A stretch of DNA of 64,000 bases from Escherichia coli (GTDB lineage Bacteria > Pseudomonadota > Gammaproteobacteria > Enterobacterales > Enterobacteriaceae), in assembly GCF_044324785.1 (NCBI RefSeq), contig NZ_CP172127.1, one strand, 5' to 3'. The position numbers were made by a program, and so were the translations under genes. Below the pieces are notes generated by a model. That model saw nothing but the letters and a program-made list of their open reading frames with translations. It made no database searches and had not been told where the DNA came from. Within the stretch, counting starts at the first letter, position 1, and each line of letters begins with the position of its first letter. Positions 5,074 through 8,086 of this stretch are shown piece by piece.

Positions 5074-6021
5074 ATGCGTGTGTTACTGGCTCCGATGGAG
5101 GGTGTGCTTGACTCTCTGGTGCGTGAATTGCTGACCGAAGTTAACGACTACGATCTGTGCATCACCGAGTTTGTCCGCGTGGTGGATCAACTGCTGCCGG
5201 TAAAAGTCTTTCATCGCATTTGCCCTGAGCTACAAAACGCCAGCCGGACACCATCCGGTACGCTGGTGCGCGTGCAGTTGTTAGGTCAGTTCCCACAATG
5301 GCTGGCAGAGAATGCCGCCCGTGCGGTCGAGTTAGGTTCCTGGGGCGTGGATCTCAATTGCGGCTGCCCGTCGAAAACGGTTAACGGTAGCGGCGGTGGG
5401 GCGACGTTACTCAAAGATCCTGAACTCATCTATCAGGGTGCAAAAGCGATGCGCGAAGCTGTACCGGCGCATTTGCCCGTAAGCGTAAAAGTGCGTCTGG
5501 GCTGGGACAGCGGTGAGAAGAAATTTGAAATCGCCGATGCGGTGCAACAGGCTGGCGCTACGGAGCTGGTGGTGCATGGGCGGACAAAAGAGCAGGGTTA
5601 CCGCGCGGAGCATATTGACTGGCAGGCGATTGGCGAGATTCGCCAGCGGCTGAATATTCCGGTGATTGCCAACGGTGAAATCTGGGACTGGCAGAGTGCG
5701 CAACAATGCATGGCGATCAGCGGCTGTGACGCAGTGATGATTGGTCGCGGGGCGCTCAATATTCCCAACCTGAGCCGGGTGGTAAAATATAACGAACCGC
5801 GAATGCCGTGGCCGGAGGTGGTTGCTTTGCTGCAAAAATATACCCGTCTGGAAAAGCAGGGCGATACCGGGTTATATCACGTTGCGCGGATTAAACAGTG
5901 GTTGAGTTATTTGCGTAAAGAATACGATGAAGCAACGGAATTATTTCAGCATGTTCGGGTGTTGAATAATTCCCCTGATATTGCAAGGGCTATTCAGGCA
6001 ATTGATATCGAGAAACTCTAA
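5074..6021 (+). CDS. dusC: tRNA-dihydrouridine(16) synthase DusC
   Basis: 315 aa from internal ATG ([13 protein letters not shown]...) matches K-12 DusC N-terminus; ORF track extends 16 codons upstream. Confidence 0.9.
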
Positions 6022-6252
6022 AAAACCATAGTGATGTTTTTTGACAATGTGTTAGCTCTTTATCAATAGGCCGCACGGTTGTTTGGTGGCGTCAAAATCG
6101 CCGAGGCGTTCCCTGAAGGCCGGGGCAGCCCACATGGATGTGGGCTGAGGGCGCGTTTTACAGGGATAATGAGATGGACGCTCCAGATTTTACGGTATCA
6201 AAGTACCAGACTGGATCGTTGCAATACGTCCTGAAAAATTAGGAGCGTCCAC

Positions 6253-7278
6253 ATGAAAGTATCAACTCTTGGTATCGACCTGGCAAAGAACGTTTTTCAG
6301 CTTCATGGTGTCGATCATGAAGGCCATACTATTTTGCGTAAAAAACTCACCCGGGCTAAGTTTGTTCAGTTTGTGATTCAACTGGAACCTTGTCTGATTG
6401 GCATGGAAGCCTGCTCATCCAGTCATTATTTTGCGCGATTATTCACCCGCTATGGTCATGAGGTAAAACTCATACCTCCGCAGTATGTGAAGCCTTATGT
6501 GAAAACGAACAAGACGGATGCAGCAGATGCTGAAGCAATCTGCGAAGCGGTAACCCGTCCGAATATGCGTTTTGTTCAGATAAAAACCGAAGAGCAGCAG
6601 GCCGTTTTAGCGTTACACACTGAACGGGGAATACTTATCCGTGAGCGGATTGCCTGTGCCAATAGTTTAAGAGCCACACTTGCTGAGTTTGGTATTACGA
6701 TTGCGGCCGGACAAAGCCATTTAACCCGTGAGCTGCCAGCCATTCTGGAGGATGGCGAAAATGGTTTATCTCCCTTTGTCAGAACCAGCATCTACAGACA
6801 GTCTAAACATATCCGGGAACTTGAAGAACAAGTTAAACAGGTAGAAGAAGCTCTGGCCTCCTGGTATAGAACGCAGGAAGCCTGCCAGAGAATGGCCAAA
6901 ATCCCGGGGGTTGGCATGCTAACGGCCACTTATGTGGTAGCAGCAGTGGGTAATGCCCGACAATTCAGTACCGCAAAGCAGTTCGCTTCATGGCTGGGGC
7001 TGACACCAAAGGAACATTCCAGCGGCGGGAAACAGCAACTGGGAGGGATCAGCAAACGTGGAGATGGATATTTCCGATACCTGCTGGTTCACGGCGCACG
7101 CGCACTTACCGCCTGGGTCAACCGAAACGGCGCGGTTGAGGAGAATTCCTGGCTTCAGGGACTCCTTGAGCGGAAGCACTACAATGTAGCTGTTGTCGCC
7201 ATGGCGGCAAAAACAGCGAGGATCATGTGGTCAATGTTGTCACACAATACTGAATATCAACCTCGGCAGCTCGCCTGA
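6253..7278 (+). CDS. IS110-family DEDD transposase/recombinase
   Basis: 341-aa ORF, N-terminal LGIDLAK RuvC-like motif, strong similarity in pattern to IS4321/IS5075-type transposases. Confidence 0.9.
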   Translation: MKVSTLGIDLAKNVFQLHGVDHEGHTILRKKLTRAKFVQFVIQLEPCLIGMEACSSSHYFARLFTRYGHEVKLIPPQYVKPYVKTNKTDAADAEAICEAVTRPNMRFVQIKTEEQQAVLALHTERGILIRERIACANSLRATLAEFGITIAAGQSHLTRELPAILEDGENGLSPFVRTSIYRQSKHIRELEEQVKQVEEALASWYRTQEACQRMAKIPGVGMLTATYVVAAVGNARQFSTAKQFASWLGLTPKEHSSGGKQQLGGISKRGDGYFRYLLVHGARALTAWVNRNGAVEENSWLQGLLERKHYNVAVVAMAAKTARIMWSMLSHNTEYQPRQLA

Positions 7279-7538
7279 CACAAGGTCAGTCAATCTGACG
7301 AGGTGCTGAAAAAAAGTTAACGTCCTGGTAGGTGCAGGTGACTTCAGAAGATGGCAAAACAGGTAAGACCGCAGGCAGGATACACCGAGAGGTAACAAGG
7401 GCAAGTTAGCCCGTAGAGGATGATTGGTACCTGCCTGGCGGATTTCATCATGGTTCGGGATAAAAATCCCATCAGAAACCGGATATATGGCTGCACCTAC
7501 CCGTTTTATTACATAACTGAAGAAAGCATTGCATTCCG
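7279..7538 (+). ncRNA. candidate IS-encoded structured ncRNA (bridge/seek-RNA-like) in 3' non-coding end of the IS
   Basis: 260-nt non-coding stretch between transposase stop and right IR containing 11-bp long-range inverted repeat GGTAGGTGCAG (7327-7337) / CTGCACCTACC (7491-7501). Confidence 0.3.
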
Positions 7539-7779
7539 GGAGCGTCCATATATGTTACCTCGCGCCCGACCCGGTAGCCGTAAGGGATAAGCCGAGGGCA
7601 CCGCGCAGCGGCGATTTTGTTCGCCAGAGCCCGGGGGTGCAGGGGGCGGCGGCGATTGGCCGCCCCCTGCGCGCTCCTTGCGCCAGTGATTATATGAAGC
7701 AATGCACATGACAGGAGCGCAACAGGATGAGAGACTGAAATATTCTCGTTATTTTCGGATCTGATGACATTAATTAATT

Positions 7780-7863
7780 TTAAAATATCATCTTAAATAC
7801 GCCAGTCACCACCAGTAGCCCAATCAGGAAAATAATCAATACAGCCCAGAGTATAATTTTCAT
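7780..7863 (-). CDS. yohP: small membrane protein YohP (27 aa)
   Basis: Manual translation of minus strand gives MKIILWAVLIIFLIGLLVVTGVFKMIF; below ORF-track length cut-off. Confidence 0.85.
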   Translation of the reverse strand: MKIILWAVLIIFLIGLLVVTGVFKMIF

Positions 7864-8086
7864 TGGCGTTCCTTTATTTGTGAGTGCTGAATAAGTATAG
7901 GAAAAAACGAAGTCCTTTGCCGTTATCCATAAACGATTAAGATAAATCGGAAGATATCATTCACTTAGTGTATATTTTTCTGGATATGTCATATTATTGC
8001 CACTGATGTTTTGCCACGCGAAACTAAAAAATATATCGCAACACACGGTAATCTCCGCGCACCTTTTCTTACCTGATTATTCCCCC

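Follow-up and report, generated by a model that had tools for sequence, protein, structure and literature searches.

Why should the short sequence that forms the end repeats of an insertion sequence (IS) occur a third time, on the ribosome-binding site of the element's own transposase gene? The question is raised by an IS1111-group element of the IS110 family, located at positions 6167-7552 of a 64,000-nucleotide stretch of Escherichia coli DNA (RefSeq assembly GCF_044324785.1, contig NZ_CP172127.1), which as a whole is referred to here as the window. In the explanation favoured here, held at a probability of roughly 55% and built on modelled structures, the extra copy of the repeat is the 3' strand of a conserved fold in the leader of the transposase mRNA, by which translation of the transposase would be held low. 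The left repeat, read as RNA (UGGACGCUCC), would pair with the copy that carries the Shine-Dalgarno (SD) sequence GGAG to form a helix, P1, and P1 would close a three-way junction whose other two helices are the hairpins P2, which is conserved, and P3, which is variable. By hiding the ribosome-binding site, P1 would lead to low transposase translation. Transcripts reading through from outside (here from the gene dusC) would be sequestered, as would, slightly less strongly, the element's own mRNA, which would arise from a promoter formed by the joined ends of the circular intermediate and would begin at the fourth base of the left repeat.

The exact 10-mer GGAGCGTCCA is present three times in the window, at 6175-6184 (minus strand), 6242-6251 (plus strand) and 7539-7548 (plus strand), all within this one insertion sequence. 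Dinucleotide shuffles give an expectation of 0.11 copies, and three or more matches were reached in none of 100 shuffles. When one mismatch is tolerated the window shows no enrichment of the motif (5 observed, 3.7 expected), so that the signal is the exact triple within the element together with its conservation among relatives. The first-pass annotation of this DNA had described a motif occurring three times at the IS ends, once on the ribosome-binding site of the transposase, and the exact triple bears this out. The positions it gave for the copies are correct to within one or two bases, with the amendment that the last base of the middle copy lies 1 nt, not 2 nt, upstream of the ATG at 6253. 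The GGAG core of the middle copy (6242-6245) lies at a normal SD spacing, 7 nt upstream of the ATG. The outer pair of copies, with one further base, makes an 11-nt perfect inverted repeat (6174-6184 and 7539-7549). Two of the three copies thus correspond to the sub-terminal inverted repeats known from the IS1111 group, and the third copy alone needs explanation.

Folding of the RNA from 6165 to 6260, the check that had been proposed for this locus, gives the suggested SD-sequestering helix as a prediction: in the minimum-energy structure (-30.2 kcal/mol, z -3.95; 1 of 200 shuffles folds equally well) 6175-6184 is paired with 6242-6251 and GGAG is buried. An SD-complementary segment is thereby found in the same transcript, within a predicted helix that is both stable and conserved. 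The hairpin had been pictured with a loop of about 58 nt; the arms do pair, but they are 57 nt apart and the interval is not an open loop, containing as it does an extension of the helix (6186-6191 with 6235-6240) and two internal hairpins. The parts of the leader are as follows.

6174-6184, plus strand: IRL, the left sub-terminal inverted repeat, ATGGACGCTCC; in the RNA, 6175-6184 forms the 5' arm of helix P1 (the anti-SD arm)
6186-6191, plus strand: 5' side of the P1 extension, GAUUUU, pairing with 6235-6240
6194-6207, plus strand: hairpin P2, GGUAU-CAAA-GUACC, the local version of a conserved CGGCAUC...GUGCCA (from the fold and covariation)
6213-6231, plus strand: hairpin P3, variable, and weak in this element (from the fold)
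6235-6240, plus strand: 3' side of the P1 extension, AAAAUU, pairing with 6186-6191
6242-6251, plus strand: 3' arm of P1, formed by the third repeat copy, GGAGCGTCCA; GGAG at 6242-6245 is the SD sequence

With the extension included, the arms of P1 are 17 nt long and 88% complementary, and they have no counterpart at the right end. An 8-mer, ACGTCCTG, partly complementary to the motif, occurs at both ends of the element (6226-6233 and 7321-7328). At the left end it offers the ribosome site an alternative local pairing when the 5' arm is absent, and its right-end copy is paired with the right repeat in the predicted fold and closes the entire non-coding region there. The right end was also examined for a mirror-image extra copy (7320-7328, which pairs with the right repeat here), and the idea was dropped, as the arrangement is not conserved; the 8-mer is treated as specific to this element.

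Relatives of the element were collected by a scan of one genome per species, which yielded at least 80 loci (45-54% protein identity among the matches listed), and were supplemented by ten closer relatives at 53-88% identity and by named plasmid-borne members. Sixty-five distinct elements with a detectable sub-terminal repeat (45-100% protein identity) were folded from the left repeat to the start codon, and at least six left-repeat positions are paired with the 18 nt upstream of the start codon within the minimum-energy fold of 60 of them. A strict ungapped copy of at least 6 nt is present in 43 relatives, ending no more than 2 nt from the start codon in nearly all. The third copy tracks the repeat of each element: ATGGTCGCCCC is found with GGGGCGACC, GTGGACGGCTCC with GGAGCCGTCCAC, ATGGACTCCTCC with AGGAGTCCA, and GTGGATGGCTCC with AGGAGCCA. 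The common architecture is a three-way junction closed by P1, in which P2 is conserved (CGGCAUC-NNNN-GUGCCA) and P3 is variable. P1 and P2 were both recovered by RNAalifold from a MAFFT alignment of 41 leaders, with P1 90% paired and six of its pairs altered on both sides; for P2 the paired fraction is 97.6%. This alignment has a covariation score of 0.229, as against 0.118 for shuffled alignments (none of 500 reached the observed value) and 0.03-0.09 for slid partners. A covariance model, R1, was built from the same alignment and searched at E values up to 0.01 in 262 kb; it returned 65 matches, including elements outside the seed, and all but two extra matches adjoin a transposase start, those two (in relatives L055 and L039) lying at loci that seemingly hold a second or tandem copy. 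In the model-based alignment of the 65 matches P1 is 88% paired, with seven pairs altered on both sides, and P2 is 97% paired; over both alignments the covariation score is 0.23-0.25 and that of slid controls 0.014-0.09. P2 shows compensatory changes in three of its five pairs and a conserved U-G closing pair. The P3 region forms a stem of at least 4 bp in 34 of 36 relatives (median z -2.4, with a median z of -4.1 for the whole leader); P3 as a fixed helix was rejected, being 33-45% paired in the alignments, with a variable hairpin position. The same three-way junction is predicted for ISEc11, a member studied experimentally, whose transposase shares 43% protein identity with that of the present element (R1 score 26 bits; fold -29.8 kcal/mol, z -3.4). 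Within the window the sole strong R1 match is at 6174-6261 on the plus strand (65.2 bits), the same locus scoring 16.1 bits on the minus strand, and a scan of 5900-7900 against Rfam 15 at E values up to 1 gave only chance matches resembling AgvB and mir-611 (E 0.18 and 0.36). As the pairing is conserved and co-varies in distant relatives, it is regarded as a selected feature and not a coincidence.

Some of the relatives (L055 at 825-914 and 920-1009, L039 at 2189-2281, and L045, L058 and L066 at about 900-975) carry a tandem pair of leader motifs, or one directly after the transposase gene, and inverted repeats of 67-71 nt are found between the left and the right regions of three. These observations suggest that such elements have inserted into one another, nested or in tandem.

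Which transcripts would be affected depends on where they start. The joined ends of IS1111-group members are reported to form a promoter (PMC11187229; PMC12288879). When the ends of the present element are abutted (7552 to 6167), TTGCAT is followed by a 16-nt spacer that holds the right repeat, and then by TATAAT, from the following parts.

7529-7534, plus strand: TTGCAT, the -35 box of the predicted joined-end promoter, recognized from its sequence (TTGGCA or TTGCAA stands at the same place in relatives)
7539-7549, plus strand: right sub-terminal inverted repeat (IRR), GGAGCGTCCAT, situated in the spacer of the junction promoter
7550-7552, plus strand: right terminal extension, ATA, 3 bp; 7551-7552 and 6167-6170 together read TATAAT in the circle
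6167-6173, plus strand: left terminal extension, TAATGAG, 7 bp, the first four bases of which are most of the -10 box of the junction promoter

The joined ends of relatives have a -35 box of TTGGCA or TTGCAA, a spacer of 16-18 nt and a -10 box of the form xTA/TAAT, and of the 55 relatives with at least 8 of 12 hexamer matches, 54 have their predicted start at left-repeat position 4. Here the start is predicted at about 6177, so the native mRNA would keep GACGCUCC, about 8 of the 10 pairing bases, including the CUCC partner of GGAG. Because a start within the left repeat keeps most of the pairing bases, the native mRNA should be sequestered too. The predicted cost of opening 6238-6258 in this element is 13.6-15 kcal/mol in read-through transcripts, 10.6 kcal/mol in RNA starting at 6177, 9.0 kcal/mol in RNA starting at 6178, and 7.5 kcal/mol without the 5' arm. 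Across 59 elements of the family the median costs are 12.3 kcal/mol for read-through transcripts, 10.6 kcal/mol for junction transcripts and 7.1 kcal/mol without the arm; the median difference is 1.4 kcal/mol between read-through and junction transcripts (p = 2e-4) and 3.6 kcal/mol between junction transcripts and those without the arm (p = 2e-10). Scans of the integrated element found no sigma-70-like promoter on the plus strand of the left end and no intrinsic terminator in the element. The gene dusC lies 146 nt upstream in the same orientation and reads toward the element, and read-through from dusC is likely to be the source of basal expression. A transcript of the circle that crosses the junction (7539-7552 followed by 6167-6191) would contain the right repeat, a 10-nt loop, the left repeat and then AGAUUUUAC. 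This arrangement makes a strong terminator-like hairpin, which would also compete with P1; the U-run is unconserved in relatives.

The first-pass annotation had proposed that the hairpin specifically represses transcripts entering from outside the element, a claim left unsupported as worded, given that the predicted native start keeps the arm and that the median family difference is 1.4 kcal/mol. In the IS10 and IS50 type of fold-back the arm lies upstream of the native start, and by the predicted start this is not the case here. A guard against outside transcription only, with the element's own transcripts starting past or deep in the repeat and being translated freely as in IS10 and IS50, is accordingly considered unlikely, even though in this element the opening cost falls by 4-6 kcal/mol from read-through transcripts to starts at 6177-6178, and though integrated copies, with no sigma-70-like plus-strand promoter seen at the left end, depend on outside transcription, here from dusC. 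The start at repeat position 4 in nearly all relatives and the retention of CUCC speak against such a guard, as do the survival of P1 in the fold from 6177 (-28.4 kcal/mol) and the small gap between read-through and junction transcripts in a family where the whole arm contributes about 5 kcal/mol. From these predicted energies the hairpin appears to attenuate in general, and to affect read-through transcripts at most modestly more. Several observations weigh against sequestration by the leader as the explanation. IS4321 and IS5075 carry only a degenerate P1, and relatives of the IS5708 type carry none. Whether P1 extends further past the repeat than the left and right ends match each other was tested with a weak outcome (mean duplex energies of -1.8 and -1.1 kcal/mol, respectively, p = 0.059), which is not counted as evidence. 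Simple sequestration also leaves the marked conservation of P2 in sequence unaccounted for. Without the 5' arm GGAG is predicted to be still mostly paired, via ACGUCCU at 6226-6232, and the contribution of the arm is therefore quantitative and not all-or-none. The analysis shows the sequence, its predicted fold, conservation, covariation, strand specificity and promoter geometry; the transcription start and the effect on translation are both inferred, the latter from thermodynamic prediction. Finally, the covariation of P1 is confounded: a protein-binding site present as a third DNA copy would show the same covariation, and because the left repeat must match the right repeat anyway, P1 covariation cannot decide between RNA and DNA.

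That the third copy acts as DNA, as an extra site for the transposase complex beside the start codon (an auto-repression operator, for example, or an accessory to synapsis), is nevertheless improbable. It agrees with the right repeat in sequence and orientation, and both change together across relatives, but a DNA copy would predict neither the deviations compatible with G-U pairing nor those that create GGAG. The outermost pair of P1 is U-A in 36 sequences and U-G in 22 (22 of 64 at this pair), and the main departure of the third copy from the right repeat is GGAG in place of GGGG, in 14 of 43 elements, which indicates selection for an SD sequence. The two strands score 65 and 16 bits for the motif, covariation in P2 and P3 is that of hairpins, and a search for a matching extra copy at the right end of relatives found none (score 4.9, null 5.0). 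Transposition of ISEc11 survives trimming of the left end to 50 bp in mini-elements, and also the insertion of a 745-bp cargo after bp 50 (PMC11187229). Since these mini-elements move without the third copy, which would lie at about bp 75-85, the copy is not needed for the DNA reaction, and this fits a regulatory role. Strand specificity, G-U pairs, the hairpin behaviour of P2 and P3 and the lone left-end copy together favour an RNA over a DNA site. The leader is also not regarded as part of the guide RNA, because its motif lies in the short left end, has no target matches, and in ISEc11 falls in the region beyond bp 50 that is dispensable. It is somewhat unlikely that the leader is real with a different main role, such as a binding site of the transposase (or of its RNA-protein complex) for self-regulation or loading in cis, or a 5'-terminal stem that shields mRNA made from the junction promoter against decay dependent on the 5' end. 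Such a role would suit the conservation of P2 and the following CCAAAGUG in sequence far beyond the needs of pairing, the 5' end predicted for the mRNA, which falls in the base of P1 and leaves no single-stranded 5' tail, and the nature of the transposase as an RNA-binding protein that co-purifies with its seekRNA (PMC11187229). It is disfavoured by the published transposase-bound RNA, which came only from the 3' non-coding region, though the construct may have lacked the leader, and by the right-end non-coding region, where a P2-like motif was found in 0 of 65 relatives; on this last count a protein-binding hairpin shared by both ends was rejected. The third copy and its next bases (GGAGCGTCCACAT) resemble the right end (GGAGCGTCCATAT) over 13 nt, as they would if the copy were a functionless by-product of the element's origin, for example of an old duplication of the right end, or a chance occurrence. 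Such a reading is hardly credible and is effectively refuted by three exact 10-mers where 0.11 are expected, and by a position and pairing kept down to 45% protein identity with compensatory change.

A wider proposal, that the leader of about 80 nt represents an undescribed cis-regulatory RNA family of RNA-guided IS1111-type transposases and does more than hide a ribosome site, is quite doubtful at present. One possibility is that the transposase or the seekRNA complex binds P2, the junction or the repeat-mimicking P1, which would give feedback or assembly coupled in cis. Another is a state switch in junction-crossing transcripts, in which the right repeat, 10 nt upstream, would capture the left repeat and free the ribosome site. 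If true, the inner half of the repeat (CUCC or CCCC) would be constrained as an anti-SD sequence, and the sequence of a recombination site would be tied to the control of translation.

The element itself and its remaining parts are described as follows.

6167-7552, plus strand: complete IS1111-group insertion sequence (IS110 family), 1386 bp, without target duplication, delimited by the empty site and shared flanks
6253-7278, plus strand: transposase gene, 341 aa, DEDD type (PF01548, PF02371, NF033542)
7279-7538, plus strand: long 3' non-coding region, the expected location of the seekRNA or bridge RNA, judging from guide-like segments and the position in ISEc11

The insertion sequence had previously been delimited as 6172-7549, and these limits are replaced by 6167-7552 on the basis of a precise deletion and the empty site. 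When 6167-7552 is removed, the site that results is identical at 315 of 315 positions to the spacer between dusC and yohP, where the element is located, in E. coli strain a7, and the uninterrupted dusC-yohP site is found in more than 5000 genomes. Three independent copies have common flanks, reading ...TTTTACAGGGA, the IS, and (T/C)GTTACCTCGCGCCC, and the target is identical at the three loci; the boundaries are fixed by one copy (L001), in which the right end is followed by C. Of 5426 complete E. coli genomes, 179 carry this 1.4-kb sequence, with 1-4 copies in each. The databases label the element 'IS110 family RNA-guided transposase' and give only 'IS110 family' for its classification, and an ISfinder name for it was not found. 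The transposase matches PF01548 (3e-15), PF02371, the IS110 C-terminal domain (1e-24), and NCBIfam NF033542, 'IS110 family RNA-guided transposase' (359 bits, cutoff 140). Its residues 130-253 (gene coordinates 6253-7275) also give a weak match, 31.6 bits and below the cutoff of 100, to the TIGR-Tas RNA-guided endonuclease. A DEDD transposase, sub-terminal repeats of about 11-13 bp, asymmetric extensions and site-specific insertion without target duplication place the element in the IS1111 group, for which the same anatomy of sub-terminal repeats with extensions of 7 bp on the left and 3 bp on the right has been described (PMC11187229; PMC11208160). The non-coding region is 274 nt long 3' of the gene and 86 nt long 5' of it. 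Within the 3' region a guide-like segment of 9 nt, GAGGTAACA (7389-7397), equals the right flank on the bottom strand, and one of 7 nt, GGGATAA (7457-7463), corresponds to the left flank on the top strand, followed by the element's first three bases (TAA). Such segments are what a seekRNA or bridge RNA is expected to carry, and the long seekRNA of ISEc11, 74-227 nt past the stop codon, occupies the same position (bioRxiv 10.1101/2024.04.26.591405).

The IS sits in the loop of a palindrome (GAGGGCGCG...CGCGCCC) within a larger repeated intergenic element (6079-6166 and 7553-7690), which has inverted ends of its own, CAAAATCGCCG at 6093 and CGGCGATTTTG at 7609. A query with the flanks finds a median of 3 matching places per E. 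coli genome, and further copies of the IS occupy the same intergenic repeat between yegH and asmA; in MG1655 no repeat feature is annotated at the intergenic target repeat. In E. coli N3, the source of copy L001, the same IS occupies the same yohP-dusC spacer in the reverse orientation relative to dusC, which is consistent with a palindromic target that presents the site on both strands. The AgvB-like match to Rfam is on the minus strand at 7697-7757, in the spacer near yohP, and at 22.9 bits (gathering threshold 56, E 0.18) is probably due to chance. Two relatives at 54-60% identity, L089 (1-521) and L091 (1-552), lie directly downstream of a gene for a group II intron reverse transcriptase (RVT_1, GIIM), which hints at a target site in or beside group II introns.

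The bridge RNA and seekRNA recombinases now under development for genome engineering come from IS1111- and IS110-type elements, whose natural expression control is poorly described. The present analysis suggests that, in much of the IS1111 group, one short sequence may do three jobs, as end repeat, as spacer of the junction promoter and as partner of the ribosome site in the leader; such a triple role would account for part of the sequence conservation of the repeat. It would also provide a testable reason why integrated copies are quiet, and it may concern engineers, as native leaders probably throttle the output of transposase. The model R1 could serve to annotate left ends and transposase start codons in the IS1111 group.

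The element resembles the known members of the IS1111 group (ISEc11, IS4321, IS5075 and IS1111) in its DEDD transposase, repeats, extensions, lack of target duplication, long 3' region with target-matching segments and predicted junction promoter (PMC11187229; PMC11208160). The same papers describe two copies of the repeat, whereas the present element has a third at the ribosome-binding site. No description of the third copy or of the leader fold was found for the IS1111 group in the seekRNA and bridge RNA literature or by targeted full-text searches, although older papers may mention a hairpin. Fold-back inhibition of read-through transcripts in IS10 and IS50 is said to go back to work by Davis, Simons and Kleckner in 1985 and by Schulz and Reznikoff in 1991. 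The likeness to IS10 and IS50 is that a sequence of the element end is complementary to the transposase's ribosome-binding site and pairs with it within the same transcript. In those elements, however, the complementary segment is upstream of their own start and only outside transcripts are hit, whereas here most of the arm is retained from the predicted native start onward. Mechanisms of this kind are thus already known from IS10, IS50 and IS200, while the occurrence and conservation of one in the IS1111 group appear to be undescribed. In its predicted action the present leader is most like that of IS200, where a stem-loop in the 5' untranslated region (5'-UTR) of tnpA is a constitutive attenuator (PMC4513863), here likewise in the native leader. 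IS200 differs in that its stem is not derived from a recombination end repeat, that an antisense RNA and Hfq are also used, and that its transposase is of the Y1 HUH type (PMC4513863). Leader structures are also described in the IS110 group, namely the 5'-UTR of ISPpu9 (PMC8450116), and the 5' stem-loop of IS621 and the flank-dependent terminator of ISPpu10 (bioRxiv 10.64898/2026.03.19.712850). Common to these is a leader structure that limits the expression of the transposase and is tied to the integrated or circular state of the element. The leaders of ISPpu9, IS621 and ISPpu10 are longer than 200 nt, hold the bridge RNA and act partly by termination or through small RNAs, whereas the present leader is about 80 nt long, contains no guide RNA and is predicted to bury the ribosome site directly.

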